The notes: generated by a model from the sequence alone, not told the origin. 64,000 nt of DNA from Owenia fusiformis (GCA_903813345.2 CAIIXF020000001.1:15066001-15130000), one strand, 5' to 3'; shown: positions 11,220 through 58,100, counted from the first letter of the stretch. Made by a program: numbers and translations.

Positions 11220-11700
11220 ATTGTCTATGCCACATCTGCCACCCCTTATTCCAATAGCACCTTTGCCCCGTGCACTGACTTTTGCAATGTTTTAACGCTT
11301 GGTCCTGAGCTGATTTTGCCCCACTTTGTGAAAGCAATTTTTATTCGGTCAACCATGACGCCATGTCAATAAATGACGTAACATTGCAGAGAGGAGAAAT
11401 TTGGCTTTCTGGAACATTGAATGAAAAGGATGCAGTCATCACTGCTAGTTTCTTCCAAGAGTCTGTGGTTCTGTGCACTGACTTTTACGATGTTTATAAC
11501 TTGGTCCCAAGCTAATTTTGGCCAACTTTACAAAAGGAATGATTATTCGCCCAAACATGACCCAATGCCAATGAATGAAATACCATTGGAAGGAGGTGAC
11601 GCATGGCTTTATGGTACACCAGATTAAAGCAATGATGCTTTCACCAGTTTTATGCTATTCAGAGATAACAGTCTGTTTCAATTTTTTTAATACGCTCTGT
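11220..11700 (+). repeat. Dispersed repeat; second copy at about 32147-32615
   Basis: Both loci share gtctatgccaca...ttccaatagc...ctgacttttgcaatgttt...gagataacaRtctgtt. Confidence 0.8.
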
Positions 11701-12673
11701 ATATTACGGATAAGCAAGGATATACTTACGAGGGCCAATCATATTATTTGAATAATGGTCAATAACGTTTTTGAAGTGTTCTAAACGTGCAACATTATAA
11801 GTCATTGAATGATTTGAAGTGCAATACAGGATATATTCTGCTCGAGAAATTCTGCATTGGAACGAGACGAAGTCGAGTGTCAATACAGAATATCGAGGCA
11901 GAATGTATCCTGTATTGCACTTCAAATCATTCAATAACGTTTTTATCGTGTGATCTTATGTCAGTACATTTTACTTGGGAGATAATCCCTAAAAAATATT
12001 CTGTATTGCTACTGAGATTGTCCCCTCAGTACCAATATTTTCTGTATTACTACGGAGAAGAATGGGGACAATCTCAGTAGCAATACAGATTGATACAGTA
12101 CAAGAACTGACCAATCAAAGGGCTTCATATACGGTAATATCGCATAATGGGACATTGAACCAGGAATTAAACAAGGTTATTCAAACTAGCTCATCAATAT
12201 TCAAGCCAATCAATAGGGAAGTTCAGTTATTTGAAATAAAACGTGAACCTGAACGTCGATACTCATATGTCATATTGATTTATTTGCGATGTTGAATTCT
12301 TGACTAAATTGCCATATTTACTTAACCCTATCAATGCTACAAAAAGCAAAATATCTCATTTTGCTGCTAATTCAAGAGTGAAGACTTTTCATGGTAAATA
12401 TGGCAATTGAGTCAATATTATATTTGATCAGAGACAAATAAAACATATCTCTGATTGAATGCAGGTTCATACCATCCCAAGTAAATTGTGCACCACACCA
12501 TACAAAACGTATATGTCTACAAGACAGAATTATGTAAAGAAATTGTTAAGTTTTCCTTTCAATAGAAAATACTTATCACCCTTTATAAAGTATAACAATT
12601 TTAATTTATCAAGGTTTATATCAAGTACATGCATAAAAAGTCTGTTTAAACAATAAAAATTCAACAAGAATTG

Positions 12674-12858
12674 CTTGCTGCCCGTAGCCAGCTTTTACCA
12701 GGAGGGGGAGCTTTTTCCTAGGGGGGAGCTTTTTTACAATTTTGGCTAAAAAGCTAAAAAATTCTCAGAATGGTGAAAAACTGCATGATTTTGAAAGAAT
12801 TTCTGGCCAGGGGGGGGAGCTTCCGCTCCCTCAGCTCCCTAAACTGGCTACGGGCCTG
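12674..12858. mobile_element. Short MITE of the (CAG)GCCCGTA-ended type with a 5-bp TSD
   Basis: TIR gcccgtagccag / ctggctacgggc(ctg). AATTG flanks both sides (12669-12673 and 12859-12863). The left terminus is slightly damaged. Confidence 0.7.
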
Positions 12859-12930
12859 AATTGTACGTACAATTTTCTTTTCAACTTCTCCATTGATTTA
12901 TTAGATAAATTGAAACAAACATTTGAATTT

Positions 12931-15900
12931 TTAGGTAGGCTTGGTACAAGTCCCCGAGTTGGCAACACACGCCTTGAGGTTATTATCCCATTCCAATCGT
13001 TCTCCAGTGATGGGATCTTTTACGGGGCAGTCCATGACCCGCATTCCAGTGTCTGAACAGGATATGTACTGGTTACAGGATTCACATGATTGGTACAAGC
13101 CGCTGGGCATGTCATCGCAGGAACGAATACCCCCACCGGTGGGGCAACAGGAATTTTCATTACATGAACGCGTCTGTAAACATAACATATATCATCAATA
13201 CGGTCAATGACATTTCTGATGGTGACATTATAATAAAATCGTACACCTTTCGATCTTCACAGTTCCAAGCCTTTTGTAAGTGTCATTATAACAGAAAATA
13301 TAGATTTACCCAATGTAGAACAAGACAAACGTTTTTTTGGATCTGTGATCCAATAAACCTCAAGTACGTATTTACTACTAGTAATCCAAAAAATCAGTCT
13401 GTAGGTCTGATCTATTCGCCAATTCTGATAGGGATAACATTTTTGGATGACTGCTGAAGCGCGTATTTATCTTGACCAGCCTATACGCATGATCATCTGA
13501 TACGTCCTACACATGTACATGTACATTGAATTATTAAAGTAACATATGCATATGTGCGGTAGGTGCGGTTAATCTACAAACAATCGATAATTAATCGGAT
13601 ATTGATGAACAAGCAATAACACCAAATCAGTATGTGAAGGAAAAAAGAAAATGCATTAGCTGACATCTTTTGAAATAAGTGAGATCTTTGTGTTCATTTT
13701 ATCCAAGTGAAGACACTCAATTAATGTACTGTATTAAAGCAATGTTTATGCTAGAACTAGCTAGACGATGACAAAGTGTGATACACCAATTGCGGTCGTC
13801 ACCACACTCGCTCGTGCAGATACAGACTCAATCATGATTCAAAATCCAGCCCTAAAGAGGGATCCGAGTGTCTCATGTTTTAGAACATTTGTTCAAATCA
13901 AGAGTGCTTGTTGACACCTGAGGACTGCAAAATGTATGCAAACACATAGATTGGATAGATACAATGCAGTGTTTTAATGCTAGAAGGACATTGTTTTGAG
14001 TATCTTTATTGAACTTTATCTCAAATTACTAGTAAATATAGGATTTCACAGTTGGATTTAGTTTTCAGATTTTCAATTTAAATTAAAGCGTCTAATGAGT
14101 CCTGGACCAAGTGCCTCTACCATGGGGTAGTAAAAGTGTGATTATATAATTTTCTGTCAATCAATCGTCCCTGCGGTGTATAGGCATATAAATTATATAA
14201 ATTGTGTGAAAATGTCAGGTGATTTCCTTTACTTAAGAAAAAAAGACAGCATTTTTATCAGAACTTATGGATCGGCCTATGTACGAGGGGTGATCCAAAA
14301 GTTTTGGACGCCCCGCTCTAACTTTGCTATTTTCTAATATAATTACATGAAACTTTCAGATAATAAAGATCAACATCTTAACAACTTTGTGTATAAGTTT
14401 CAAAAGTTTTGTTATCTCATTTTAAACAAATATGCGTCTGTCACATACATAGAATTTGATAGTTTTAATGTACGTATTAGTCTGAAGCACCCACGGGTAG
14501 TTAGTCAACAATCGTCATCAAATGATTATTAAAATACTAGCAATACAGCTTTTGTATCTTATTTACCTCAATCGAAGGTCCTTCACAGTCTTTGCCCCCG
14601 TTTGCTGGTTCTGGATTATTGCATAACCGTGTTCGGTTTTGTGTTCCTCCTCCGCACGTTTTGGAACATTCTCCAAAATCTGACCAAGGTCCATAACCAC
14701 CGTCCACAGGGCATGGACTGGTACTACATTCTCTCGTTTCCGATGTTGGACCCTCACAGGGTTTACCTCCATTTTCAGGTCCAATGCAGACTCGTGTGCG
14801 GGTCTGTATTCCCCCACCGCATGATACGGAACACACGGAATAGTTAGACCAAGATCCAAACCTTCCATCAACAGGACAAAGTGGGTTGTCGGGACAATTT
14901 CTAACTTCTGTTGATGATCCTGAGCAATCGGATCCACCATTTCTGGGTGGAGGGTTGTTGCAGTAGCGGTTTCTGGATTGGGTCCCCTCACCACACGATG
15001 TAGTACATGCCGAGAAGTTACCATAGGAACCCCAAACTCCATTAACTACAAGCAGTAGGGTCAATGATGATAAATGAAACAAACTGTCACAATGATCTTA
15101 TACACCAATCTCGATAAGACTCTCGAATGAACGAGTAGGCCTAGTACGTAGCCCGGTACGTAGTAGATTACATTACGTAAAAGTGTTTTAACCTAGTATG
15201 ATATGTAGTCACATCTGATGTGCAAAGAAGGATAGATCAAAAGGTCTTATAAAAACACAAAAGAACGTAATCAATCATGAGGAAAAAGAAAACAGATCCC
15301 CAATATCCCAAAGTATGATCCAATGCACAAAGAGACAATGTCTAACAATCCAGCCTCTCCCAAAAGCCTACACATTCATTCCAGGATTCATTATCACAAT
15401 CCAAATCAACAAAACTATGGAACTTTTGTTGAGTACTCGTTGGAGAACATTATTAATAAATTAAAAAAGTGCATTCAGTCTCAATTGATATTTGACAGAC
15501 AAAATCCAATATAATCAACATATTAAACATAATGCCAAAACAATATTATTATTAGCAACGTATAAGCTCGTGTTCTTGATTAGGCTAGCATTCGCAAATT
15601 CAACTGCCGGCTGTCGGCTGACGACTCGACTGCCATCCCATGGCCAACTCATTTAAACATGAATATGAATAGTAGCAGCCTATGGCTTCGGGAATAGTAC
15701 TTTTTAGAGGATATTCCATCGGGGAAATAATTTACACTATTGCCCTCAATGGCAGTCACTATTTGTATACTATTCATATTTAAATGAGTTGGCCACAAAA
15801 TAGAAATCAAATCGCAGTCAAATCGTCAGCCATCAGCCAGCAGTTGAATTCGCGAATGCTAGGTCTTTTCTTTATCCTGGATCGAGGGGATAGAATATAA

Positions 15901-18601
15901 TACACTCACCTGTAAATGAAAATGATCTCTGCTCACTTTCATTCGGCCTGAACCAGCAGTCACACGCATTTTCATTGGTAAGACCACGTGGCCGATCGGT
16001 GATAGTAACCTGGAGAGAAGGAGGTGGTCGTGCAGTTGTAATAGGTAAGTTACGAGGAATGTTAATATACAGGGTGTCTCAAAAAAATGTACCCAAAAGT
16101 ATATCAAGAGCACAGATAAACCAATCAATATTTTCAGACATTTTTTGCATGGTCATGTAGCCAAAACATGAAAGTTTTCTCCCCAATACACCATTTTTAT
16201 TTCAGTCTTGTCTTTTTGATGCTTTAACCCTTGACCTTTTACACCACATAATCGATGTACCCTCTTATTTCGATGACAGCCTGTATCCTTACTGCTACAT
16301 TGTTCATCACATTTGATAATAATTCTGGTAGAATGTTTTAGATTTCTCTTTGGATGTTGCCCTTAAGTTGTTCTAGGTCTTTTTGCTTGGAATGAACATT
16401 AAAACACTTCTTCAAATAGCCACAGAGAAAGATGTTTGAGGATGACGATGGCAGAACAAACACAGATAATCAGGGCAATTATCGTCAAATGATTCAGGAG
16501 TTACCTTCCAGAGTTAGACAGGCTAGCCTGGAGACCAAATCATATCCAAATGAAAACACAGTGGTCTCAAATTGGTACACAAACAAAAGCTACATTGGAA
16601 TCCCAAGCAATGTAGTTTCTTGAACCTCTGACCTCTCTGTATAGGGGGGCTATAAGACATCGTGAGGGCCTCCCTATTCACCATATTTGACGGCCCATAC
16701 TTTTTTCTCTGAGGCTATTTGAAGGACCATTTTTATGCTAAACCCAAGCTAAGAGACCTAGAACAACTTAAGACCAGCATCCGAACAGAAATCAAAACAT
16801 TCCACCAGATATATCAAATGTGATGAACAATGTAGTAGTAAGGATGCAGACTGTCATCGAAATACGAGGTTACATTGAATATGTGGTGTAAAAGGTTATG
16901 GGTTAAAGTATCAAAACGGCAAAACTGAATTAAAAACTGTGTATAGGGGAAAAAACTTTCATCTTTTATCTACAAGACCATGCAAAAAATGTCTGAAAAT
17001 ATTGATTGGTTTCTCTATGGTGTTGATATACTTTTGGGTACATTTTTTTGAGACACCCTATATGTACTCATTTTTGTGGTGACATATTGTTATGGTTTCT
17101 TACGTTTTCGTGGACGATGTTCGGCATTCGGTGTCTGTTACAAATGGCAGGTGGAGACATTTTGCATGTTAAAGCCTTGCATCGATTTGAATTGAATATG
17201 TTATACATGTATGTCTTCGCTAATTACAAATAATAACGTCAATTTACTTTTGCGAGTTTCCAATCTGGACCAAAACCACAATCGTTCGGATTCATGTATA
17301 TATCGGCTTGATGTATCGCTCCATAATCTTCATAGATGAACGTATCGGCCTTGCTGCAAATACAGGAATCATTATTTAGACGCAGATGTTCCATATGTAT
17401 TATCTGAGACCATCTATGTTAGTCTCAGGTATTATGTATGAAGCAAAACTGATCCTGAAAAGTGATACAGGAACGAACATTTCCGGGTCTTTTCACAATT
17501 GATCTGAGTGGTACATGGTCAACTCGGACCCTAGTTAACTCGGACACTAGTCAACTCGGACCCTAGTCAACTCAGACACTAGTCAACTCGGACCCTAGTT
17601 AACTTGGACCCTAGTGAACTCGGACCCTAGTTAACTCGGACCCTAGATTACAACTCTAGATTATAAGTTCCCAGTTGTGGGTTGAACCATGATATTTGGC
17701 AAATCAATGTACCTTTGGATAAGCTTTAAAATGATATACATGTATGACACATTCTATGGAGACATTGGTAATGGTATATGTCTGCCTGAGGGCATACTTT
17801 CGCGACACCCTGTAATACCTGTATATCCAATTTTCACACGATTCGAAAAATCATGTCAATGTACACATTACAGCGTGTAATGCCTTGGTCACATTTGCTC
17901 CGATTTTCACTACGGCGCCCGGCCGATTGAGTATTTTGTTCAAAATTGAATACAATATTGAACAAAACACTCAATCGGCCGGGCGCCGGTCGATGGATCG
18001 GAGCAAATGTGACCAAGGCATTAATGTCGATATAATGCTCCATATGAATTATCAATTCTTACTCGTTTATTTGAAAATTTCCATCTAATCGGCGCCTGTA
18101 AAGTGTACCAAGATGACCATAAAGAGAGATATAAATTTTACAATCTGTACCGGCAAAGAATTCGTCAGCTGTGTGGATATTGACATGGTAGACGTATGAC
18201 GTCACTCCACCTGTGAAAGTAAAGGATAAAAGAAATATGTTTCAATATGTAATTAGTTCATTTTGAAAATGTATAATGTAAGCGTTAAGAGCAAAATATT
18301 GGAGGTGAATTTTTTTGGAAAAATCAAATTGAGAATATTTTTTTCTTGTCTTAAAATAGTACATGTAGTTATAATATCAAATATCTACAAAAATCTGCAC
18401 AGATTTCCAAAAGAAAATGTACGATTAGTTTGGAATCGTGTTACGGTAAAAATACATATAATATTGTAGATTGTACAATTATTCTTGAGTTATTGTAATA
18501 TCATGGTATTGTCACTATTTTTAAAGTGATACAAAGGGTTACCAATGCAACTTACCCACAGCAATTGCTAATAATACCAGAATTGCATTTATAAACGCCA
18601 T
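12931..18601 (-). CDS. Secreted 373-aa protein: signal peptide + PLAT/LH2 + 3 thrombospondin type-1 repeats + chitin-binding type 2 (peritrophin-A-like) domain. Exons 18601-18556, 18210-18063, 17353-17248, 16009-15910, 15045-14567, 13173-12931.
   Basis: Six GT-AG exons total 1122 nt with no internal stop. Signal peptide MAFINAILVLLAIAVGGVTS. PLAT motifs YHVNIHTADEFFAGTDCKIYISLYGHLG...FQINDKADTF...GFGPDWKLAKVTI...CDCWF. Three TSP1 repeats with CxxS/TCGxGxQxRxRxC. C-terminal CDDMPSGLYQSCESCNQYISC...CP...WDNNLKAC...C. A minus-strand AATAAA lies at 12897-12902. Confidence 0.9.
16070..17060. mobile_element. Tc1/mariner (rosa/maT-like) deleted element with about 360-bp inverted arms and transposase remnants, TA TSD
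   Basis: TA|CAGGGTGTCTCAAAAAAATGTACCC ... GGGTACATTTTTTTGAGACACCCTA|TA. Plus-strand remnants are FEDDDGRTNTDNQGNYRQMI and PPYSPYLT/FFL*GYLKDHFYAKPKLRDLEQLKTSIRTEI. Confidence 0.88.
17519..17646. repeat. 16-bp tandem repeat x8 (TYAACTCGGACMCTAG)
   Basis: Eight consecutive near-identical units with no spacers. Confidence 0.95.
17878..18022. repeat. Long near-perfect inverted repeat (about 70-bp arms, few-nt loop)
   Basis: taatgccttggtcacatttgctccgat...cggcgcccggccgattgagt.ttttgttcaa / ttgaacaaaa.actcaatcggccgggcgccg...atcggagcaaatgtgaccaaggcatta. Confidence 0.9.
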
Positions 18602-19732
18602 ATTGGAAAGTTGTTGTTGAAAATGTTGAATCAACACATGGCCAAGTTTAAGTACTCTATAGACTGATAAGAATAACATTAATCATTCTTTTTTGCATAT
18701 TTTTGATATGTGCCCCCTCTTATTTTTTAAATTTGCAAAAAGACTGTATCGGTATAACTTCATTAATCATGCTTTTGAGTCAAGTTGAGAAGTTGATATT
18801 AAAAAGATTTCATAACTTTTATTATGCCGAGAATTTATTCACTATGGCGTTGTTTTTCAAAAATGTTATAACTAAATTTGTCTATTATCATGTCTTATCA
18901 TTTAGGACCCAAATTGCAAAAAATAATAAGATGATTATTTGGTTTTCGTTGTTTTATTGTATCTCTTTAGTCTTATAAAACTACAAAATCATTGCTCCCA
19001 TTTGCTTCTTCTAGGAAATCACATCTCAATCTCATCCTTATTGTTGTGCTATTTTTTCGTTGAAACAGCTCCAAAGATGGAATGAATGGGCGTATGTATT
19101 TCATAGGAAAGCATCTCACATATTTAATGTTTAGTAATAGCTTCATGATACAGGAGTCGTTCAAAATATTCTGCGGGAAATATTTTCAAACAATCGTGTT
19201 GTCCAGCTGCATGTTTTCTACAATACAGAAATCAAGACCGCGATATACCTATTAAAACAAAGGTAAAAATATAAACCCAGAATATATAAAACAAACTGCA
19301 ATGATATGAAGCTGGACACATAATGGGAATGGAACATATAGGGATACTGTTCGCAACTGATGACGCAAGGTTGAAAGCACACCAAACAACACGTTTAGCT
19401 TTTCTCACACTAGTAACATGAAACGAGGACCTTTGGATCAAACCCTTCGAAAATGAACAAAAGTACTGTAGGTCCACAATCATTTTGTAATAAGATCAAC
19501 GCTACAAAATCTGTCTGAGTTGTAAATGTACTTATTTTGAGTCATTGTTTCATTATTTTTTTGTTTCAAAGGGCATAAAAGTGCAATGTGTTTAAAACGT
19601 TCATGAATACTTAAAACGTTTTATTTTTTCTTAAAAACACTTAACAATTATATATTCAGGAATGTCTGGCGGATGACTAGTGTGTCGATCAACGTTTATG
19701 GAACAATTTAAAAGAATTAAAAATAATGCTCC

Positions 19733-20758
19733 AAAGGATTGGTATCGATATGGTGAACTTTTTAAACACATGCTTCTCTTAAACCAGTCATAGAAAAATT
19801 CTGAAAATTTTACACATCGTCAGTGGTCATCTATTAAATGGTAACAATATAATTAATTTGAAAAATAAATATTTTTTTCTCTTTATTGTTTTAGAAACCA
19901 CACCAGGCACCACCTTTGGTCTTGGTATCATATGTTTGGAATAAATATATCCGAACCTCATTGGAACAAAATGTCATAAACACAACGTGTTTAGGTCTCT
20001 CAATATTGTAATTGTACAAAGGAATTTTTTAAATCTATTTTGGGGGTTTGTTTTAATTTTTTTAATACTTTTTCAACCAAAATCAACCAAAAGGAGTGGT
20101 ATCGATAAGGTGAACTTTTTGAACACACGTTTCTCTTAAACCAGCCATAAAATAATCTAAAAAATTAACACATCGTCAATTTATATTGGGGGGATTTTGT
20201 TTTAATTTTTTGAATACTTTTTAAAATCAACCAAAGATTCCTTTGTATAACTATAATATTGAGAGCCCTAAAACATGTTGTATATGCTATTTTGTTCCAA
20301 CAAGGTTCGGAAAGACATTTTATTTCATTCTCAAGAATTGGTAGAAGGGAGCAAAAACAATTGCAAAACAAAAACAGATTTTTTTCAATGATTGGTTTAA
20401 GAGAAAAACATTTTTGAATTCAGTTCACCTTATCGATACCTATCCTATCCTTTGTATAACTATAATATTGAGAGGTCTTATAAGAAAATGTTGTATATGC
20501 TATTCTGTTCCAACAAGGTTCGGAAAGATATTTTATTTCGGCATTCTCAAGAATTGGTAGAAAGGAACAAAAAACAATTGCACTTAAAATGTTAACAAAA
20601 ACAGTTATATAAGATATATATAAATAAAATTCGCATTTAATTGTTGTCAGTAAGTCAACATTACATAAAGGACCGTGTTTTTTAAACAATGTTTTCAATA
20701 ATTGGTTTAAGATAAAAACATTGTTGAATTCAGTTCACCATATCGATACCAATCCTTT
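19733..20758. mobile_element. MITE family with AAAGGATTGGTATCGATATGGTGAAC TIRs (nested or rearranged); further copies at about 55680-56227 and 57580-58265
   Basis: The TIR and its reverse complement GTTCACCATATCGATACCAATCCTTT recur, and internal sequence is shared between copies. Confidence 0.75.
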
Positions 20759-22019
20759 GAATTGTACAGAAAGAAGACCCAAAACCAAAAATCAGAGCCG
20801 CGCAAAATTGTATCAGTTTCTCAATATCTATGGAATCAACCAACTGCTGGAATTTTTTACTTACACACAGAGTTTGTCATTAAATCATTAATTTACTACT
20901 TACATGAAACTTGTTTTACACATTACAAAAAAGGTTCAGGACGACGATGAAATATAGCGTATATGCTTCTATTGGACAAAGATGATGCTCTTTACAACGA
21001 GTACCATATGTGACGTATTTATCCTATTAATTAAGGAGTGCAGCTTCTGTGAAAGTGTTCGACAAGTGTTACCAAATGTTACAAGTTTGAAAAACATGCG
21101 GTCCATAGTGACCTCCACATAAGGGTTACCTCTTAAATGACAGACAATGAAAAGATCAGACAAGATATTGTTATTTTTGTGGTGGATTCGGGTTTTGCTG
21201 TCCAATATTTTGTATCCTCCAAACATTAAGATGTCATCAATGCACATAAATGATTTCAAACAATTATTTTCAGAAATGAGACTAATTAAATTAAGTATTT
21301 AAATGATTGTTATATAAAATCTCAATTTTATCGAATTTTTTAGTAAATTAAATATGTTGAGCATGTGTTGGAGGATACAAAACATATGGACATTATAAAA
21401 CGTGTTATTTTTTAATGAGTACTACATATCTACAACCCCTTTTGAGAGATGGTCGGAAACATAATTTATTAACCAGTTAGAAATTATCGACGTACTTGAT
21501 GCATATTCTGCTATGTTGTTGTCCGAGTCTCCATAGCAAAATTTGATTTTTTTGTCAAAAATCACAATTCAAGCTATTTTTAAGAAGCAATATGTTTAAT
21601 ATATATATCGCATGGTCATGGTAAACAGTTGTGTTGACATCACGATAGCACATATATAATGTCGTTTATATCAATACACTTGGCGCAGGATGTGGTGGAC
21701 CTAGAATAGCAGAATTCATGGCCGGATTTCAAAAATATCAATTATCGTAAATTTGCCCTTATGTACGAAATATAAGAGAAGATAATATTTATTTAACGTC
21801 GGTTTTCATGTACAGGCAACATATTAGCGCAAGCGCTATTCTCCGACTAGTGTATAATAAAATATATGGTAAAAAGTGTAACAGATATTAAAAATACATG
21901 CATACAATAATTTGACAGAGACATCTATAAGACTTTATGACTAGAATAAAATTGATACACAGTAAAGACTGGCTAAATGACTGAGACATCTAGTGACTAT
22001 AGTTTATAAAAATTGAGTG

Positions 22020-26300: not shown

Positions 26301-29300
26301 CCATTTTACCATGCAGATTTGAAATAAGAAAAATAAAATCTTGGGGAGGGAAACCCGAAAACACAACAGCTATTTGCATAAATCAGCCTGACCTTTCACC
26401 TAGGAATGTTTATAGTGGGAAATTTGAATTTGAATGTTTAGACCACATGATTGGTCTATTATAGTTTGATCTGATCACATGACTTATCATCATCATTATC
26501 AAGTTTAGGAGGGGTGGAGGCTTTATACCCTTTAATGTTCTCCCATCTGATCTATTAAAATTAAAACTGAATTTAGGGAAGGGGACTGATTATTGCTCAC
26601 TAGTGGCTATTTGTAAAGATCTGAGTACCATGCCTTGTCCAGGAGGGTTTTGAAGTGGGAAACTGACGTGGCATCAATGATACTCTGGGAGAGGGAATTC
26701 CAATGTACCAGATGAAAATGTTATGTATATACAAGTTTTCTCTGAATTGTTTGAATTAGAAATATTCTTCTAAGGTCTTCTAAAGCTGATTCTGTTTATT
26801 TTTGAGTCAGAAAAATTATATTTTTGAGGCATATGTTAATATGATGACAACTTTGTAACCTCTGCTGATCCAGTGCTAAATATACTGATATTTGATTTCC
26901 ATGAAGGCCTTTATCCAGAAGTTTCGAATGTTATGGTGGAATAAAATTGATAATAGATCAACAGATCAATAGACTTGTTTATTATTATATAGGCCTATTG
27001 TAAAGGAAAACTTTGTCTTATCGCGATAATAACAATTTCAAGCGATAATAACAACTACCTTACTTTGGTATTTAGTTACCTAGAAAAAATCTTACGTAAC
27101 AATTTTCAATACCAGGTGAGAAAGTTAAGTTCGAACCCTGACCAAGTTGTTTATTTAGTTCAATATCTGAAGGTTTTAAGTAAGTACGGATCAAATGATT
27201 ATAGATTGCATGATGAATTAAGGTCTCATGGCAGTTAAGAGCAAATGACAAAATGAAGAGATGACAAAAAACATAAGATAAAATATTTTTCTGACTGACC
27301 TACCCTAAAAAAAAATGAGTAAAATTTTAATGAAAAATAAAATAATCCTCCTACCTACCTACCCTAATCTGAAAATACATGGAGCAGGAAACAGACATAT
27401 ATTTTTGTTTGGCCTAATGATTGCTGAATGTACATGTTTTTCAAATGGTTTTCACACTTATCTATAATTTGAGAATTATGACATTTATTTGCATTATGTA
27501 TCTTAATTGTAACATTTATCACATAAGATAATCTAATATGTCTCACATCGACTGACATCATGTGAGGCAAGTATTGGTGATCTTAATGTTTACTTTCACA
27601 GGGAAACCTTCTTCATGAACATCTCTATTGAACATCTTAGTCTATAATGATTACAATGATTCTTTCTGTATTGCAATGTGTATTCACTATACACAGGTTT
27701 TACTGTAGTTCCTCAACTCTTGTTAGAATCCCAAGGGCATGAGTTGTTGACAAACATACATTTTTCTGATGGTGATTGAACTGATTGTTGTTACAGTTAA
27801 AACTTCTATTAATAGTCTGAAAACAATAAAAACTCCATCAATTATACTAACTGTTGAAGTTTCTTCCTGATTGTATGAACATAATGTATTTTTGTTAAAT
27901 GAGTAATCAGTTTTATTTTGATGTCCACTTTCTATCATCAGAAAGTCCAATATAATCAATACTCACAAGGGGATGAAACAAATGATTTGAATTTTTTTTA
28001 ATGTTATTTTATTTCAATTAATGTTTTATTTAACAACACAGTAAATTTGTTTCTTTTTACTTCTTGTTCTAGAAAAAAATATTTGGGCCTGTACAGGACT
28101 CAATTGGCCTAGAATGTATTAATTCAGCTCAAACCTCTTATATACAGCTCCTAATGTAGTAAGCCTCTCTCGTCTTCATTCTTGGCTGAAAAAGATCTGG
28201 TCTCCTAAAAACACAATTGAGAGTAACCCCCTGATTTTTTCGTCTGATTTGATGTATAACAAGTTTGTTTAAATCAACTTATCAATTCTGAGGCTTGAAT
28301 TGATTCGTTAACAGTATCAATTCGATGATTGTTCCTAGCCATGAATTTACATCAATAGAAATTAAAACTAAAATTTAAAAAGCCCGCTCAAATTTGTTCC
28401 AGTCTGATTGGCTTTTTCCTTCAGATTATTTTGGCTTAGAGAAGCCATATTTATTACTTCTAAGAAGTTACAATATAGATAAATCCCCAAAAAAACATTG
28501 TATTCTGTTTTCGACTTATTGCGTTCAATTCTGACAGTTGGTTGTTCTTTTGGTTGTCCTGTTGATATCCTCAATATATTGTCAATATCGTGCTTATGAT
28601 TTGGTCTCAAGATATATCTAAGGTATATATGATGTTTTATGAGCAATTATATTTGGATTTTACTGATTGTCCAGAATAGAAATCTGGACGACTCGATCTC
28701 TTTAAACTGAAGAAAATATTTGAACAAAATCACTTTTTGTATTCCAGACCGCCATCGTGAAGAACAACCCTAAGAAATATCTGAGAAGTGTGGGTGATGG
28801 CGAGACTGTAGAATTTGACGTTGTTGCCGGTGACAAGGGTGATGAAGCATCAAATGTCACTGGACCCGATGGTGAGCCAGTACAGGGCAGCAAGTACGCG
28901 GCTGACCGTCGGCGCTACAGGAGGCGTCGATACTATTCTCGACGCGGGGAGGGCTCCAAAGATGAAGGGAGCGGTGATGGAGAGGCTGTCTCTGGGGAAG
29001 AGAAATCTGGGGATGAGGATGGAGAGGGCCGAGGAGGAAGGCGCAGACCATTCTGGCGTCGCCGTCGCTTCAATGGTCCAGGAGGGCGTGGTCGTGGCAG
29101 GGGAAGAGGACGTAGAGGTGATGGGGAGAAAGGGGAGGGAGAGGTAATGTAACAATAATGCTATCTACATGACTGACAGTTTTCTAGATTATCAAAATAT
29201 TTGATATTTTAAATACAAATATAATGGGATGCTTTAGAATAACAAATGTTCAAACTTTTGGAAATTTAAAGGTTATTGACATTCAATTACAAGACTCGTA

Positions 29301-30406
29301 ATGAGGCCCGTATGAGGTTGTACAGGGTCCGTTAACACAACGAGCTCTGTGCAGGTGTGTACGAGGTCCAATGTAATTTGCCTGTGTAGGGAAAACGTTT
29401 TCAGCTAATTTTGGTCACCAATAATGGATATCTTCAAAACCCCCGGAGGAATTACTTATTCCTTTATAGGGTTTAATTGTGTGTCAAAACACAACATATT
29501 GATGCAACAAAAATTAGAAAAGCAGTGGTGGAAGGGGTTGAAAATAAGGACAACATTTCAGAAAAAACATGTGGGTGGGTTGTGTGCATCTTCCCTGTCT
29601 CAAAGTCAAAATTATTTTATCTCTATGATTGCTTTCCCTGGAGATAATGTATTGGCCTAACATATTCACCTGTTTGAATCCTGAGAAAATGGCCAAAGTC
29701 CAACATATGTCTGAAATCTGTTGCGATACTTTCCCTCCTCCTTTAAAAGTCTTCGACTTTAACTTTAAAACTGGCCTTAAGGTGATCAATTTGAGTATAT
29801 CAGAACATGTCCATGTTTTGCTAAACATGAAAAGTATACATGGTCTAGCTTCCATAGTAGGAGAGAGATGGTATAGCAAGTAATATCCCGTTAGATTACT
29901 CCAAATGATTCATCTAAGCATTTGAGATATAAGTCATCCATGCTTGTTATATTGTCCCCGTGTGAACTAAAATAAAAAATAATGCTGTATGACCTAAATA
30001 AATCATGTCATATTTGCAGGATGATAGTGGTGAGGAGGGTGGTTCAGGCAAGGAGGGTGGAGAGAGGAGAGGAGAGGGCAGTGATCGACGTCCACGTAGG
30101 CGATACTACCGTCGCTACTACAGGAAGAGTGGTGGAGAGGAAGGAGATAAAGAGGGTGGTGAGAGCGGAGATGGGGAGGGCAGTGAACCTCGTAAGAGAG
30201 ACAGACCTTACCGTCGGAGGCGTGGGCGAGGTCGTGGGGGTCGTGGACGTGGTGGACCACGTAACCAAGGTGATCGTGAGGCCGCAGGGGACCAGGGGGA
30301 TGAAGGAACAGGTGGCGGGGAGCAGGCTGGAGACAGCAAGCCCCCACCACCAGTCGAGAGTGCTGCACCCCCTGCAGCAGCCCCTGATGGCCAAACATCA
30401 GTGTAA
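23196..30406 (+). CDS. YBX1: Y-box-binding (cold-shock domain) protein, 313 aa. Exons 23196-23256, 23500-23563, 25410-25443, 28748-29143, 30020-30406.
   Basis: Spliced [62 protein letters not shown]...[29 protein letters not shown], followed by alternating Arg/aromatic and acidic blocks and RGRG repeats. Total 942 nt in frame. AATAAA at 30758. The symbol indicates the family (YBX1/2/3 co-ortholog). Confidence 0.96.
25895..27414. mobile_element. PIF/Harbinger-type MITE in Y-box gene intron 3, TAA TSD
   Basis: TAA|GGCCAAACAAAAATATATGTC.GTTTCC ... GGAAAC.GACATATATTTTTGTTTGGCC|TAA. Confidence 0.85.
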
Positions 30407-31670
30407 CCAGCAAACACCACATTTACCATCTAGCTAGAACACACACAATATAGCAGAATAGCTGTAAAACAACATCTCTTCAATCAACACTGGACACTAG
30501 TATTTGAATGGATAATATTGCTCAATGATGTGCTGTGGGCACAGTATTCAGTTTTCGTTGGTTGAGTTGATGTAAATAATTTTATGAGCAATTAATGATG
30601 AACAGTGATATGTTATTACTTTTGTAGAATGTTGTTTTTATTTTAATAACAGCTTTTTCCATCTTTATTATTTAAATGGCTATTATAAGAATTTACAAGA
30701 TCTATACAACCAGTGTGTATATCCAATGAATGAGTTTAAAGCATGTGCTTTTCAAAAAATAAAGTGCCTTGTTGGCCATTCAACATGATGTTTTCATAGT
30801 TTTGCATGCTTATGGAGAAAAAAGTGTTTTATAGCACAATTTGGTGCTATATTGCGATTGCTATGATTTAGGTTTCCACAGGTTCCCACAAACTTCAAAC
30901 ACAAAGTCAAACTTGATTGAGGGATTGATTATACATTTTCAGAAATGTGTGAGAATAAAGAAATGATCGGGTTTGGTTATACTGGAAAATGTTAAGATGG
31001 TTATTTTGGATTTACTGTCCTAATCTTGTCTGAAATTTATCCTAATCCTAAAATTGTTGGCAATGAGAGGTTCAGTTCCAGCAAACTGATTGCATTTACA
31101 TTTTCAGAAATGTTTCTAGATATGACAATCTGATTTGTTTTAGTGCATGATGGTCAGGGTGACCATTTTGGATTTTTCATTTAAATTTTGAGCGTAGTAT
31201 TTGGTGCATGTAATGTACTGTATATTAATTTGCTCCATGGTTGTAATGTTGTTCCCTATGTCTCCAAAGAAAGCGGTCATATTTGTGTATGACCCCTCAT
31301 CTATGTGATTAGTTTCTAGTTTAAATTTTTGAAGGGTTATGAATGTCGCCTAGCCTGTAAGCTAATGTGTTTGGGTATTTTAGAGTTGTAAACACCCTTC
31401 CAATGCATTTCATTCTTTAGGAAAGCAACCATTCGGTCATTCCCCAATAGTACCCACTGCATCTTGAAAAAAATCTAATTTTTCTATTATGAAAAATGAT
31501 TTGAATAAAGACCCTTTTTGCTGAGCTAAGGAAACTAGGGTATAAAGTAGGGCAATCTGGATTCTGCAGGATATGTTTGAATGGTGCTCCATTCTGTTCG
31601 TATTTTACATGCCCTGTTCAGTTTACCCATCCAATAGTGAGTGAAATTAAAATTTTAATTGTTCCCTTTT

Positions 31671-48562: not shown

Positions 48563-48832
48563 TACCTCTTTATTCCCCTTATTAGATCTCTGAAGCTTAA
48601 ACATTTACCTTGCTTAGATTTAATAGAGAGGTTTCACGACAATGGGCTATAGTTGGAACACACTGTTCTTTTACCCCCTGTAGATTTCACAAATAAAAAT
48701 CATATATGATAAAATAAAAATCAATAATATTTCTATTTACATCTGCCTATTGTTCAAGATACTTGCAATGTTAGAAATGTTCAGGCAAATTAAAAGAAAA
48801 GATGATAATTATATTTTGTACTTTCAGTTAAA

Positions 48833-50713
48833 ATGGAGAGGAAAGCTAAGAAACGACTCAGCAAGAACAAGAAAAAGACATGGAAGAAGACTGATGTACA
48901 AGATGTCGAGGATCACCTGGAGGATCAGAGACTGCAGGAACGTACTGGTGGCCTCCTGGCTGAGAAGACTGATGAACAACTGTTCTTTGTCGATTCTACA
49001 AAGCCTGTAGAGGAACCTGTACCAGCTAAAAGAAGCCGTCGTGATCCTAAACCTTTGAAATGTCACAGTGCCTTGTTGCCTGACCCCAGGATTAAACCAG
49101 CGAGGGTGGCCCATAATATCAGACGGGATAATCTGAAGCGTAAATGTGCTAAAAAAGTATCTGACATTCAGAATGATGTGTTGTCACCTACTAGAAAAGA
49201 AGCTCTTCATAATCAAGTTAACGCTAAGCTGAATCGTCAAACGAGAATCCGATCAAAAAAGATCACACCTCATGCCAAATTTGATCTTTGGGGTGGTGAA
49301 ATAGACCAAACTAAACAGGAAGATGATGACCATTTTGCTACTGTGACTCGCAAGAAGCCTGTAAAACTGCCATCATATCACAATAAGAAACCCTCTAGCC
49401 TGCCTGCAGTTGAGGTGGCCCTCCCTGGTGCTTCTTACAACCCAACCTATGATGACCATCAGCAATTGCTACATGTTGCCAACAAGGTTGAAGTGAAGAA
49501 ATTGAAGGTTGAGGAGAAGATCTTACGCCAAACAGACCACATGTTCCCAAAAGCTGATAAAGCACCAACTAAACAAGATCATTTGCAGGTTTGTGACTTT
49601 AATGACAGTGGCAGAGGCTTCCTTTATTAACATTTATATGTCCTGTTTTGTGAAGTATGTGAGAATTGGCTCATTTACAAGATGTTTCATGTTTTAATTC
49701 TTTTAATTTACAACTCAGAGGAGAGAATGTGTCAAACCCTTTCCCATATTGACATATTCTCTTCTCTAAAGTGTATTATATATTTTGCAGCTAGACATTT
49801 AAGAAGAGAGAATGTGTCAAACCCCTTTCCCATATTGACATATTCTCTCATCTAAAGTGTAGTTGTAAAATATAGTTAATTAGAATCTTAATGTATTTCA
49901 CATTTGAAACTTCTACTCCTCCAAAGTAAACAAAAAATGAAAACATCATTTTTATAAAAAAATGAAAAAGACTCGAAACATTTTGATCTCATTAAAATAC
50001 CTTCAGAGTTATGCTGAAAACTTATGCAAATATTATCCTGGCACTAGTGCCATTAAAAAGTTAATAAAATCTTCTGATCCTGACCCATGCTTTTTATTGT
50101 GAATTTCTTAAAATTTGGCCATATTTGTGCTAACCTTGTTTCATGTGATTTGCAGGAGATGTCAGCTGGCTTATATGAGGAGGAGGATGATAGCGAGGGA
50201 GAAGAAGACACAGAATACACGTCCATAAACCCTGCAGTCAGGCGTGACAAGAAGAAGACACCACAAACAAGACGCAAAGAAAAAGAGCGCAAAGCGAAAG
50301 AAACTCAACTGAAACTTGAAAAATTAAAGCGGAAGAAGGACACTGAGTTATTTAGAATTAAATCTATTCAGAAGGATGTCACTAAAAGCATTAAGCAACA
50401 CAGTGAGAAAATGGCAAAGCAACAGACTAAAAGGGCTGAGAGGAAAGATAAGACTCAGAGATTAGGTTCTAATAAATTTGAAGCTCCAGAGACTGAGCTG
50501 AAGCTCTCTGATGAGCTAGTTGGCTCATTGAGACTGTTGAAACCAGAGGGGAATCTACTGGAGGACAGGTACAAGAGCATGCAGAAGAGGAATATCATTG
50601 AACCAAGGAAGAGGGTGAAGGTCTACAGGAAATATAAACTTAAGGACTATAAAAAACCAGGTCATGGTGCCCAGGCATATATGAACTCGTATAAGGCTAA
50701 GGGGAAGAAATAA
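48833..50713 (+). CDS. NOP53: Ribosome biogenesis protein NOP53 (GLTSCR2/PICT1), 437 aa. Coding exons 48833-49588 and 50156-50713.
   Basis: N-terminal SKNKKKTWKKTDVQDVEDHLED, the LFFVD arch-interacting motif, PAVEVALPGASYNPTYDDHQQLL and C-terminal LKPEGNLLEDRYKSMQKRNIIEPR. One phase-0 GT-AG intron. An acceptor just before the ATG (48827) implies an upstream non-coding exon. AATAAA near 50794. Confidence 0.96.
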
Positions 50714-52417: not shown

Positions 52418-55105
52418 CTACTGAGTGATGGAAAATTTACCATCAATTGTATATATTTCCTTTTTGGTAGGACTATCATTATAAGTTTCAAGATCATGTT
52501 CTTTTTGCCATCTATACTTCATGAGTGCCTCAATGGCAATATAGCTGACTATTCCAAGTAGCAGGATGCCCAAGTTTGTCAGTACTTTAGCATACATACA
52601 CAAGTTGCTGCTTAATGCAAAGGCAAGGGTAGAACCTACATTGTGCCACAGGTTCTTTGCACTGAATGCTGTCTCCATGTCTGTTGCGAACAGAATCCCA
52701 GTTGTTGCTGAAAAAATTGAAATCGGAGATACAGTGTATTAATTTTTGCATGCTTGGTTTCAACATGGGCTTTCAAGAGAGTGTTGAAAGCCCATGGTTT
52801 CAAGTCCAAGAAAATACATAGGGTTGATTTATATAATTATATTTCCACAAAATGATCATTCTACAATTCTGTTGATACTTGATAGCTATGACACATGATT
52901 TAGTAATTTGTGTCACATAAATAATGGATCAGTTTCTATTGCATACATCAGATAGCTAGATATTGTTAATAAATAACATAAATCCTGTTTCAAATGGATC
53001 ACCATAAAAATTATCATTCAACTTATTGATATTAACTTATTGATATTCTTATCAACTACAATTATAGATCTTAGTTATTTTTTTTGTTCCCATTATAATC
53101 CCCTATTTAGTCCTAAAGTAATGACTGAATTGTTTCATACCACTAAGCTGGGTCTGCCATACTGCATCTCCAACACCCCACACGAATGGCAGCACAAAGA
53201 ACATTGGCAGCTGCGTTGCTGTAGGAGTCCAGAACAACATAGCTGCCATGACTGCAGTATGGGATAATGCAGCCATAAATACCATTGTCACACGGCCAAG
53301 GTATTTCTGTAGGAAGCCTCCAATATAGGCAAACACTGTGTTGGAAACACCAATGAACAGCATGGAATAACCAACAAATCCTACTCCAAGCTCACATGTC
53401 ACAAACGACTGAAACAAAATCATTTTTTGTCAGCATTCCATGGATTTAGATTGCTGGTTAACCCTCCTAGAAATACATGTAGGTGCAGATGGCACTAACA
53501 TGCATGAACATTTATGAAAAATAGAGAGATAGTGATATAGTAAACGTTAAGAGTAACATCATGGAGTCCGATCATGATAGTTGTTCTGAAACATTTACAA
53601 CATTCCTGGATATGGTACAGGGTGAGCCAAAAAGATAACCCAATCAAATCTTAATACCTCAGTCATCCAGTATGGGCACAAGTAAACATTGTTCAATGTT
53701 CTTTAACTCACTTAAGTGTCTAATGGTTATGATTTTATGGTCATTTTACAAATCATGCTCAAAATGTCTTTTTTCGAGGCAATCTTTAACACATCAGATT
53801 AAGTTTTCTGATTACCTGTTCACAGATATATTGTATAATGGCTCACATTTGCCTTCTTATCTCTTATTTCAACCCTGAATCTTCTAGTTAATAGTTAATG
53901 TAATGTACATATTACCTTTGAAATAGCTCCAAAAATAAATTATGTGGTTTCATATTTGATGATTTTGGTAATTTTTGGCATTTGGAGCATGTTTTGTAAA
54001 ATGGCCATAAAACGATGACCATTGGAATGATAACTTGATAGAAAGAACATTGAACAAGGTTCCATTGTGCTAAATATGACTTAAAACCCATCTGGATGAT
54101 TGAGTAATTTGTTTGGGTTACCTTTTTTTGGCTCACCCTTGTATGTTATTTTGCTTTCAAAAAGTGCTAAGAACCTTGCACGTACTGTACCTGTGTAAAG
54201 TCACTCTGCATCAATGCATTCTTGAATCCAATGTAAAGGAACAGTGAGATAATCAGGAGCAGCTTCACATTCTTGTGCAATTTCATTGTACCAAGAATCT
54301 TCATACCAACTGATGATGATTTCTTGGTTTTAGACTCAACTGGTGCGAGGAATAAGATTACTATGGTTACTGCAACCACAACAAATCCCAGATAAATGCC
54401 CAGTAAAGTGTACATCCTTCCATCTTCTGGCCTTTGAAATGTTGTCTCATTACCCATTGTGTCAATCTCATATGGACAAAAGTTTGCCCCACAGGTTGTT
54501 ACCATTTTGGTAGAGTTCAATGTTGTACTTGGAGCTTGCTGTTGTTGTAAGACTAACGATGATATCAAATTTCCCCATATCCTAGCAGAGTTAAACAAGG
54601 AAAAGAAAATGCCACTGAACCTCCCGAGAACAACTTGGTCCTTCTCTCCTGTTAAGTCCGCATAATCCAAAGCTATTGTTGACCTGTATACTCCTAATGA
54701 TGTTGCTACAAGACCTTGTGTTAAACCAACTATTACACTTGCTGGATATAATGTGTAGGTTCTCGGGTAAAAGTTAGCAGCCACAAATACCCCATGGCTG
54801 AAAATGCCAACAGTAAACATCCATTTTGCGCCAAATGTTTGAACAAGGAATGAAGATAGGAAAAGTTGAGAGACAACAGTTGCTGCAGATCTGATGCTAA
54901 GAGTTGTGGCCCCCAGTCCCTGAGCACCATTTAGACTACTCTGCAGGCTCACTAGTGAAAAGAATGCAGAGTGAGAGATCATGGAAGTCAATGATAAAAT
55001 AATCAGACTAAACATTATCCTTCTTTTTTTCTTAATTGTATTTTGATGATCTTCAGGATCTTGTGCTGTTTCTTCATTTTTTAGATCTTTCTTTTTAAAA
55101 TCCAT
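52418..55105 (-). CDS. UNC93A: UNC-93-like MFS membrane protein (UNC93A-like), 490 aa. Exons 55105-54191, 53408-53141, 52707-52418.
   Basis: Motifs AFFSLVSLQSSLN..QGLG, ANFYPRTYTLYPAS, WGNLISSLVL, CGANFCP, DFTQSFVTCELGVGFVGY, WGVGDAVWQTQ and AFSAKNLWHNVG. Exons total 1473 nt in frame. Confidence 0.92.
53618..54141. mobile_element. Tc1/mariner MITE in a UNC93A-like intron, TA TSD
   Basis: TA|CAGGGTGAGCCAAAAAGATAACCC ... GGGTTACCTTTTTTTGGCTCACCCTTG|TA. Confidence 0.8.
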
Positions 55106-58100
55106 GGTGATTGTTTTATAAATCTTATCCTCTATATCTCCCTCAATTAGGCATGCATAAAATGATCTTTCAAATTCAATACTAAAAATGACACAAGTAC
55201 TTTATATTATTTAATTTATTTGTATCAACGATATTTTGTGCATGTCATCCCTCTTTCAAATAATGGGCAGTTTTCTAATTATAAATCGATACATGTAAAT
55301 AATGGAGTTTTATAATTTTATTCACATGGCCTAACACACTTTTATGAAGTTCAACTCAGATTTAATTAACAACTTCTAGTTAAAAGATATGCAAATCATG
55401 AGTTAACTAACACTGTAAAAGATAAACGTGAGAAATTGTGAAGTGCCATGTGATTTTATCTGAGTTCATTGATATGCAAATCATGAGTTAACTAACACTG
55501 TAAAAGATAAACGTGAGAAATTGTGAAGTGCCATGTGATTTTATCTGAGTTCATTGGGAATGTGCAAACAGTAGCCAGGACAAACTCATAATATACTTGA
55601 GATATTGTTTTGTTTAAAGGGAATTGAAGTACATGTGCATTGTGCATGTAGTCTGATCCTAAATAACATTTTAATTACAAAGGATAGGTATCGATATGGT
55701 GCTTTATTGTTAACTGATTGACAACAATTCTTGAGAATGAAATGAACCTCGTTGGAACAAAAAAGCATATACAGCATTTTCTTAGACCTCTCAATATTAT
55801 AGTTATACAAAGGAAATTTAGGTTGATTTTACAATTTTACAAAAAGTATTCAAAAAATTAAAACAAAACCCCCAAAATAGATAAAAATTAAGATAAACCT
55901 TTATTTCATTAGCAAGAAAAAATCAACCAAACTTTCCTTTGTACAATTACAATATTGAGAGACCTAAACATGTTCTGTTTACGTTCAATGAGTTTCGGAT
56001 AGATGTTTCATTTCATTCCGAAAATATGATACCAAGAACAATAGAAATGCCTGATGTGTTTTCTAAAACAATATAGAGAAAAGGATATATATTTTTTCAA
56101 ATTATATTGTTACCATTCAAAAGATGACCACTAAATTGATGATGTGTAAAATTTTCAGAATTCTTTGATGACTGGTTTAAGAGAAACTTTGTGTTCAAAA
56201 AGTTCACCATATCGATACCAATCCTTTTGGGACAATTTTAAGGCAACCTTTTTCAGTTTTAACAAGCAATTCATTTTTCTACATATTTAAAATTCTGAAT
56301 TTTCACCATGCTTATGAAGTCCACTGATGGTCCATACTTATGAAGTCCATTACAGGTTTCATAATACACATCTTAACGCGAACAGTGTCAACAAGTGTTT
56401 GATGTGTTTTTTAAAACAATATAGACGGCAGTATGTATATCTATTTCAAATTATATTGTTACCATTCAAAAGATGGCCATTATATTGACAATTTGTAAAT
56501 TTTTCAGAATTCTTTGATGACTGGTTTAAGAGAAACGTGTGTTCAAAAAGTTCACCGTTTCGATACCAATCCTTTGGGACAATTTTAAGGCAACATTTTT
56601 CAGTTTTAACAAGCAATTAATTTTTCTACATTTTTAAAATTTTGATAAGAATTTTCAACATGCTTATGAAGTCCATTGATGGTGCATTTTGTGCTAATAA
56701 CATTCAGAATTTAAAAATTACTTAGTATTTAGTATTAAAGCAATGGCACCAAATACCAATGAAAGAATTATTCTTGAATCTGAAATGTGACAATATATTG
56801 ACACAATGCTGTTCAAAAACATTGATTTGCAACTAAAAGATATTACAGGTTTCATAATACATATCTTTCCTAAGAGTGTAAAGAAAATCTGCCCACCAGT
56901 ATTTGTGTTATTTTATGCAGATAGACCAATATATACATCATCGAAGGTCAAATCTAAAGTCAGATTTGAACTTCTGATATTTTGTAGATGATTTTGAAAA
57001 AAAGAATTGGTCAATTTGAAGCAAATTGAAGAGACCTTTTTGATGATCTTGAGGATCTTGTGCTGTTTCTTCATTTTTTAGATATTTCTTTTTAAAATCC
57101 ATGGTGATGGTTTTATTATCTTATCCTCTATATCTCCCTCAATTAGGCATGCACAAAATGATCTTTCAAATTCAATACTAAAAAAATGACACAAGTACTT
57201 TATATTATTTAATTTATTTGTATCAATTTTTGTGCAAGTCATCCCTCTTTCAAATAATGGGCAATTTTCATAGGTAATTATATATCGATACATCTAAATC
57301 ATGGAGTTTTATGATTTTATTCACATGGCCTAACACACTATTACTAAGTTCAACTCAGATTTATTTTACAACTTCTGATTTCAAGCTAAAACTGTACAAG
57401 ATAATCGTGTGAAATTGTGAAGTGCCATGTGATTTCATCTGAGTTCACTGGGAACAAGCAAGCAGAAGCCAGGACAAACTCATAATGCACTTAAAGATAT
57501 TGTTTTGCTTAAAGGGCATTGAAGTACGTATACATGCACATTTTGCATGTAGTCTGATCCTGAATAATATTTTAATTACAAAGGATAGGTATCGATATGG
57601 TGAACTGAATTCAACAATGTGTTTCTCTTAAACCAATTATTGAAAACATTCCGTAAAAACACGGTCCTCTATGTAATGTAAACTGATTGACAACAATTTA
57701 TTTATTTATTTATATATATTTTATAATTATAACTGTTTTTGTTAACATTTTTCGTTTTTTAGTGCAATTGTTTTTTATTGTTCCTCATTGGAACAAAATA
57801 GCCTTGTACAACATTTTCTTAGACCTCTCATTATTATAGTTATACAAAGAAAATTTTGGTTGATTTTACAATTTTACAAAAAGTATTCAAAAAATTAAAA
57901 CAAAACCCCCCAAAATAGAGAAAAATTAAGACAAACCTTTTATTTCATTAGCAAGAAAAAATCAACCAAACTTTCCCTTGTACAATTACAATATTGAGAG
58001 ACCTAAACACGTTGTGTTTATGTCCAATGAGGTTTGGATAGATGTTTCATTTCATTCCGAAAATATAATACCAAGAACAAAAGAAATGTCTGATGTGTTT

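Follow-up and report, generated by a model that had tools for sequence, protein, structure and literature searches.

A transcribed Owenia fusiformis gene encodes a predicted secreted protein that joins PLAT, TSP1 and CBM14-type domains

PLAT, TSP1 and chitin-binding type-2 (ChtBD2, equivalent to CBM14) modules have been described in one annelid chitin matrix, the beta-chitin tube of Paraescarpia echinospica, a siboglinid. According to the accessible part of that work, 35 matrix proteins were found in the tube, with LamG, VWA, ChtBD2 and TSP1 domains enriched among them; a LOXHD1-like protein of 29.5 kDa is part of the tube proteome, and the collar, which secretes the tube, shows enrichment of two secreted PLAT/LH2 domain proteins, 202-fold for one of them (PMC8476170). 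The ChtBD2, TSP1-bearing LamG and PLAT modules of this matrix are reported on separate chains, and no PLAT-TSP1-ChtBD2 chain appears in the text or the supplement rows that were available. Here we describe a gene on the minus strand of a 64,000-nucleotide stretch of Owenia fusiformis DNA (CAIIXF020000001.1, 15066001 to 15130000; hereafter the window) that resembles the Paraescarpia matrix in its modules but encodes all three on a single chain. A sequence-only reading of the window had stated that PLAT domains mostly occur inside cells or joined to an enzyme; the LOXHD1-like tube protein and the collar-enriched secreted PLAT/LH2 proteins, as given in the accessible part of the Paraescarpia work, make that statement too strong for annelids.

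Each module also has well-studied relatives. LOXHD1-like proteins, the nearest PLAT relatives (approximately 27-33% identity) among the best 150 of the 393 matches described below, consist of as many as 15 PLAT repeats in a chain, without TSP1 or CBM14, whereas the Owenia protein has a single PLAT domain and is predicted to be secreted together with matrix modules; it is therefore not regarded as a LOXHD1 orthologue. Its C-terminal domain shares the six-cysteine pattern, profile matches and weak fold matches with the CBM14 proteins Avr4, tachycitin, chitotriosidase, Der p 23 and Aplysia EHEP, but has eight cysteines and a 19-residue loop between canonical cysteines 4 and 5, and is fused behind TSP1 repeats. 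The repeats themselves align over their full length with those of properdin and thrombospondin-1, with six cysteines each and the C-x-x-S/T-C-G motif, but lack W-x-x-W, and the other domains of those two proteins are absent.

The gene extends from the A of the ATG at position 18601 to the last base of the stop codon at 12931 and comprises six exons (Table 1). All five introns have GT..AG borders, the junction phases in exon order are 1, 2, 0, 1 and 0, and the spliced coding sequence of 1,122 nucleotides, read from the sequence and checked by script, encodes 373 residues including 30 cysteines. The sequence-only reading had proposed six in-phase exons with the same ends, and this model was upheld, the term "in-phase" being correct in the sense of one continuous frame. 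Exon 4 was missing from the open reading frame listing because it is only 100 nucleotides long and lies 49 nucleotides downstream of the end of a repeat arm. The spliced product is identical, letter for letter, to the Owenia fusiformis protein CAH1773253.1 (UniProt A0A8J1U9V6), which is already public and labelled only "uncharacterized protein".

Four public runs were aligned to positions 11500-21500 of the window, namely X9 and three RNA sequencing (RNA-seq) runs from 2026, X13 to X15. The RNA nature of X9 (52 million letters) was a guess, and the run was accepted as transcript-derived from its depth pattern: depth was 131-213 in exon bins versus 0-2.7 in unique intron and intergenic bins, so the library is cDNA-like and unlike genomic DNA. 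A single X9 contig of 1,128 letters (depth 212.7) joins all six exons and spans 12926 to approximately 18604, with segments at 12926-13173, 14567-15045, 15910-16007(+2), 17246(+2)-17353 and 18063-18208(+2) and its last 49 letters past 18554(+2). The five joints (13173/14567, 15045/15910, 16009/17248, 17353/18063 and 18210/18556) coincide with all of the predicted junctions, and their CT..AC ends on the plus strand correspond to GT..AG on the strand of the gene. One contig passes through every joint, and the PLAT, TSP1 and CBM exons therefore share one transcript, which settles the question, left by the sequence-only reading, of whether the PLAT exons and the TSP1/CBM exons might belong to separate transcripts. 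A retrocopy in DNA was considered as a source of the spliced contig and is unlikely, since the unique intron and intergenic bins of X9 are empty. One read of X14 also spans the exon 5/6 joint. Within the coding sequence, four positions differ between the contig and the window, each of them by a synonymous change at a third codon position, which points to purifying selection, albeit from a small sample. These data indicate that this is a real gene, transcribed and spliced as one unit.

The 373-residue protein was judged to carry a signal peptide by a hydrophobicity heuristic (mean Kyte-Doolittle value of 2.9 over residues 3-15), and no membrane span was predicted, the highest later 19-residue window in the Kyte-Doolittle scan reaching 0.63. 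The mature protein would be an acidic, disulfide-rich polypeptide of approximately 38.7 kDa with an isoelectric point (pI) of approximately 4.9, and its cysteines are distributed as expected for the domains, with 4 in PLAT, 18 in the TSP1 repeats and 8 in CBM14. The Pfam scan of the full protein (gathering cut-offs of 23 bits for PLAT, 21.6 for TSP_1 and 22.1 for CBM_14) returned these three families, CBM_14 below its cut-off, and no enzyme domain, in agreement with the earlier description of the protein as enzyme-less.

Pfam PLAT (PF01477) matched residues 23-129 of the full protein with an E value of 8e-9 (36.7 bits) over profile positions 1-113 of 117, as anticipated by the claim of a complete PLAT domain split over three exons; exon 2 alone gave an E value of 1.1e-5 (26.5 bits). 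A profile made from this domain and that of a paralogue described below matched the solved structures of coral 11R-lipoxygenase (1.6e-13), 5-lipoxygenase (7.5e-11) and polycystin-1 (7e-7), and weakly that of bacterial alpha-toxin (0.068). The PLAT fold is a beta-sandwich of eight strands; DSSP assigned six strands to residues 21-134, in a full-length model that is itself untrustworthy. Residues F33-F34 (WW in the paralogue) directly precede the AGTD motif and align with E-H of coral 8R-lipoxygenase, at a position which we take to be that of the membrane-inserting W13/F14 in 5-lipoxygenase. By sequence comparison, the PLAT module of CAH1773253.1 is classed as a complete domain of the LOXHD1 type.

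The three predicted TSP1 repeats were recovered as three stretches matching Pfam TSP_1 (PF00090), with an E value of 2e-33 (114.8 bits) in the full protein and 1.5e-36 for exon 5 alone. Each repeat has six cysteines, accounting for the 18 cysteines of residues 135-302, and the block aligned over its full length with properdin and thrombospondin-1 in the PDB with E values of 1e-41 to 1e-33. The motif C-x-x-S/T-C-G, presumably the O-fucosylation consensus, is present in all three repeats. The W-x-x-W motif for C-mannosylation, which is common but not universal in TSP1 domains, is absent throughout CAH1773253.1 and its paralogue CAH1778238.1, and each repeat has a single Trp, the remaining layer positions being occupied by Tyr or Phe.

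For the C-terminal domain, Pfam CBM_14 (PF01607) scored 25.1 bits (E value of 2e-5) on the isolated 72-residue domain, above the cut-off, and 21.9 bits on exon 6 alone. The cysteine pattern is C312-x10/13-C326-x5-C332-x9-C342-x19-C362-x6-C369, accompanied by the aromatic residues Y320, Y329 and W355 and by two additional cysteines, C303 and C323. A profile of the C-terminal domains of both paralogues matched the CBM14 structures 4z4a (9.9e-5), 8in3 (1.8e-4) and Avr4 6bn0 (0.039), and its W-D-N-N stretch aligned with the WNDN stretch of Avr4, which we assume to contact chitin. Assignment of this module to the PLAC domain of ADAMTS-like proteins was also considered and was dropped, no Pfam match to that domain being obtained at E values up to 1-10.

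The paralogue, CAH1778238.1 (A0A8J1XMB4), is an uncharacterised Owenia fusiformis protein of 762 residues with the same order of signal peptide, PLAT, TSP1 and CBM14 (Pfam PLAT 73.9 bits, CBM_14 25.5 bits). The two proteins align from end to end apart from the additional TSP1 repeats, with 37% identity in PLAT and 47% in CBM14. The paralogue differs in having nine TSP1 repeats rather than three, two cysteines rather than four in PLAT, and an acidic Gly/Arg-rich tail after CBM14. It is encoded on a separate chromosome-sized contig (35.7 Mb versus 62.2 Mb for CAH1773253.1), and tblastn of the 64-kb window revealed no paralogue of the gene.

To place this architecture among PLAT proteins, the PLAT part was searched with HMMER against 1.84 billion representatives clustered at 50% identity, which gave 393 matches with E values of at most 0.001; the best 150 were used, and the statements that follow apply to these. 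Most are approximately 27-36% identical and have many PLAT repeats, and those with names include LOXHD1 of sea urchin, coral, sea cucumber and vertebrates. With the gene's own cluster excluded, the TSP1 block and the C-terminal domain were found in 1 of the remaining 149, namely CAH1778238.1 (5.8e-186 and 2.9e-19, respectively). Pfam detected TSP_1 or CBM_14 in none of the 66 other matches of up to 900 residues, in which the partner domains were CARDB (2), GDPD (2) and PI-PLC-X (1) and one protein lacked PLAT at threshold; the 83 longer relatives were checked with the TSP1 block and C-terminal domain by local phmmer. A word-seeded profile search among longer proteins yielded 36 matches from 593 candidates, namely the two Owenia proteins and 34 LOXHD1-like proteins with PLAT as their only domain, and a word-based search with PLAT exon 2 among longer proteins gave two candidates, neither of which scored. 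Since only CAH1778238.1 shares the modules among the matches used, these proteins form a small family so far found in Owenia fusiformis only, no other annelid genome having been searched. The family looks lineage-restricted and, because each module occupies its own exon or exons, looks to have arisen by exon shuffling.

The literature search likewise returned no description of a single protein that unites PLAT, thrombospondin/TSP1 and chitin binding, no pairing of PLAT with ChtBD2 among the matches listed (those for PLAT and TSP1 being mostly human genes so named), and nothing linking the lipoxygenase homology domain, chitin and annelids. The Paraescarpia work (PMC8476170) was the one paper found to bring together chaetae, chitin-binding and thrombospondin. 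In the accessible parts of further papers, PLAT occurred only in a polycystin-like coral protein (PMC4890752), was not found in the main text (PMC12549020), or was absent where TSP_1 was present (PMC13425148). The statement that no characterised protein has this domain order therefore holds both for the PLAT relatives that were used and for the literature search. The novelty is the combination of well-known modules; the protein itself had been deposited without characterisation.

A second database entry derives from the same gene. A search with exon 6 led to a partial Owenia fusiformis protein of 298 residues, CAH1773254.1, whose 90% cluster includes the 373-residue protein; in a word-based search with this exon, one of four candidates matched, and it was this partial isoform. 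CAH1773254.1 opens with the 3' end of intron 3, read through into exon 4 (15995-16069). The signal peptide and two-thirds of PLAT are missing from it, and the entry could reflect either an annotation artefact or a transcript that starts in a repeat. The ESM Atlas contains the identical sequence, with structural neighbours that are TSP1 proteins only (template modelling [TM] score of at most 0.33) and no usable feature match.

We next considered what a protein of this composition might do. The reading we prefer, with middling confidence, is that it is a secreted, disulfide-rich, acidic component of a chitin-containing extracellular matrix, such as that of the chaetae, the organic tube lining or the gut lining, in which it may serve as a linker. 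In such a matrix, the C-terminal CBM14 domain would anchor the protein on chitin fibrils, the TSP1 repeats would form a stiff rod that additionally binds other matrix molecules, and the tip loops of the N-terminal PLAT beta-sandwich would grip a membrane, a lipid-like surface or a partner protein, so that chitin would be cross-linked to a second surface. The occurrence of PLAT proteins in the tube and collar of Paraescarpia, in the part of that work available, makes a chitin-matrix role more plausible.

Several observations weigh against this assignment. The CBM_14 score falls to 18.5 bits in the full protein, below the cut-off of 22.1, and the peritrophin-A-like domain claimed by the sequence-only reading is thus supported when isolated but not in its full-protein context. 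In an AlphaFold model of the C-terminal domain (predicted local distance difference test [pLDDT] of 74.5), the top 11 of 11 Foldseek rows were of the CBM14 type (among them EHEP, the chitotriosidase CBM14, Der p 23, Avr4, tachycitin and Blo t 12) but weakly scored, with E values of 0.02-1 and TM scores of at most 0.45; all five listed VIA-align rows with Z of at least 2 (six were counted) were also of this type, with weak Z values of 2.2-3.1. PDB 8in3 is a polyphenol-binding protein, indicating that CBM14-like modules can take other ligands, and because EHEP binds polyphenols, chitin binding by the C-terminal domain is not to be assumed. At the other end of the protein, four residues of the common NDFERG segment, retained in the paralogue, are missing from the PLAT domain, which also scores lower, so binding may differ; the binding function of the domain may be altered or weakened. 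The full-length AlphaFold model, made from a two-sequence alignment, was unusable (mean pLDDT of 37.8). Exon depth was approximately 1 or less in X13 to X15 (approximately 6-12% of each run sampled), in contrast to the high expression in X9, suggesting low or restricted expression in those samples. Finally, the tube of Owenia collaris, in the passages available on it, has a plywood-like lining of secreted strands and the animal has tori with thousands of tiny hooks; those passages speak of secreted strands and ridges only and make no mention of chitin.

The sequence-only reading had inferred one of two roles, a tether that links chitin to a lipid or cell surface or else an opsonin. As an opsonin or humoral pattern-recognition protein, the Owenia protein would bind the chitin of invaders such as fungi through CBM14, recruit effectors or oligomerise through the properdin-like TSP1 rod, and engage host or target membranes through PLAT. 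We regard this as unlikely. Among solved structures, those of properdin and thrombospondin-1 are the most similar to the TSP1 part (E value of 1e-41), but the similarity to properdin is limited to generic TSP1 repeats; CBM14 occurs in the antimicrobial tachycitin, one of the fold matches, but the Pfam scan revealed no other immune module (no C1q, lectin, MACPF or protease domain). PLAT-like domains dock bacterial alpha-toxin on membranes, which accords with the weak profile match noted above, and the very low levels in three RNA-seq runs together with the high level in one library would fit inducible or cell-type-restricted expression. Nevertheless, the sole annelid setting found for PLAT, TSP1 and ChtBD2 proteins, in the accessible part of the work describing it, is a structural chitin tube.

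A different extracellular role would be that of a tube cement or mucus adhesive gluing sand grains, with TSP1 and CBM14 acting as general protein and carbohydrate cross-linkers rather than chitin anchors. The Owenia tube is described, in those passages, as secreted strands with sediment grains, and in limpet adhesive mucus there are proteins bearing TSP1 as well as chitin-binding type-2 proteins, the two modules lying on different chains, according to the available part of that paper. However, PLAT has no occurrence in the main text of the limpet paper, and the Owenia sequence is acidic (pI of approximately 4.9) and has no DOPA-type (3,4-dihydroxyphenylalanine), low-complexity or strongly basic features. 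We consider an adhesive function a somewhat slimmer prospect still.

A bolder and quite improbable reading is that the two paralogues act as molecular rulers. At the membrane of the cell that secretes it, nascent beta-chitin would be tethered through PLAT and CBM14, at a spacing set by the number of TSP1 repeats. In chaetae, chitin is released on a template of chaetoblast microvilli, as described in the part of the paper available (PMC4705615). PLAT would sit on the outer face of a membrane such as that of these microvilli, and CBM14 on the chitin fibril. If each TSP1 repeat spans approximately 5 nm, three versus nine repeats would fix the distance between membrane and chitin at approximately 15 versus 45 nm. 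Very improbable, finally, is that the gene is a recent by-product of exon shuffling without maintained function: the architecture was found in Owenia only (among the PLAT relatives used and in the word-seeded search), PLAT appears degraded relative to the paralogue (36.7 versus 73.9 bits) and the introns are repeat-filled, but the frame is open over six exons with 30 of 30 cysteines at domain-typical positions, the transcript is abundant and correctly spliced in X9, the four allelic differences are all synonymous, and the paralogues, just 37% (PLAT) and 47% (CBM14) identical, have kept the domain order and key residues.

The introns carry repeats of several kinds. Intron 3 contains an inverted-repeat element of approximately 1 kb, with arms at 16058-16318 and 16812-17072 and also at 16337-16438 and 16696-16797; the arms of 261 nucleotides are 88% complementary, and it is one of these that ends 49 nucleotides upstream of exon 4. 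RNA-seq reads on this element were mostly 95-99% alike, as for a dispersed transcribed repeat family, and Pfam gave no match for its open reading frame pieces. In intron 2, positions 17518-17646 comprise a 16-bp tandem repeat with the consensus GTCAACTCGGACCCTA (8.1 copies, 88% matches). In intron 1, positions 17834-18058 encode near-identical peptides on both strands (...NALVTFAPI...PGRLS...EQNTQSAGRRS...RSKCDQGI...) and are therefore taken as a palindrome-like hairpin element; the bin 17846-18179 was covered at a high depth of 41-82 by each of the three RNA-seq runs, and loose ends were numerous at 17878/17880, which suggests that the element belongs to a repeat family expressed elsewhere. 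Downstream of the gene, reads of all three 2026 runs skip 44 nucleotides at 11955-12000, with one other letter between the two sides and non-canonical TT..AT ends. This is probably not an intron but a repeat copy that varies by an insertion/deletion. Three unrelated neighbouring genes are included in Table 1.

Table 1. Features of the Owenia gene and its neighbours, numbered from the first letter of the window
Feature	Position	Strand	Evidence or remark
Exon 1: ATG and predicted signal peptide, residues 1-15 plus base 1 of codon 16	18556..18601	-	Sequence, splice check; last 49 letters of X9 contig
Exon 2: N-terminal third of PLAT, with FFAGTD motif	18063..18210	-	Pfam PLAT on exon alone; X9 joints
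Exon 3: mid-PLAT	17248..17353	-	Frame, GT..AG borders; PLAT span in spliced protein; X9 joints
Exon 4: C-terminal third of PLAT (VTITD...CDCWF...)	15910..16009	-	Reading of intron sequence; tblastn; X9 joints
Exon 5: three TSP1 repeats (residues 135-302 start here)	14567..15045	-	Pfam TSP_1; PDB matches
Exon 6: final strand of TSP1 repeat 3, putative CBM14 (peritrophin-A) domain with 8 Cys, stop	12931..13173	-	CBM_14 score; profile and fold matches
Stop codon TAA	12931-12933	-	Sequence reading
Candidate polyadenylation signal AATAAA, 29 nucleotides past the stop	12897..12902	-	Read in sequence; X9 contig stops at 12926
Cold-shock-domain (Y-box-like) protein gene, Arg/Gly-rich exons	28724-30437	+	Neighbour, unrelated
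Nop53 ribosome-biogenesis protein gene, two large exons	48809-50713	+	Neighbour, unrelated
UNC-93/MFS-type (major facilitator superfamily) membrane protein gene	52418-55201	-	Neighbour, unrelated

Invertebrate genomes often bring common matrix modules together in new combinations, which tempers the surprise at this architecture. To our knowledge, the proteins that organise annelid chaetae and tubes, which are precisely shaped chitin materials, are barely known. The protein described here is a candidate, with a predicted chitin anchor at one end and a PLAT domain that may dock to a membrane or a partner at the other, and the two paralogues of unequal rod length offer a natural comparison. The gene also suggests that a LOXHD1-type PLAT domain has been put to use outside the cell, and it looks to be a clear case of exon shuffling. 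If the paralogues did act as rulers, they would represent a new, lineage-specific way to pattern chitin deposition.

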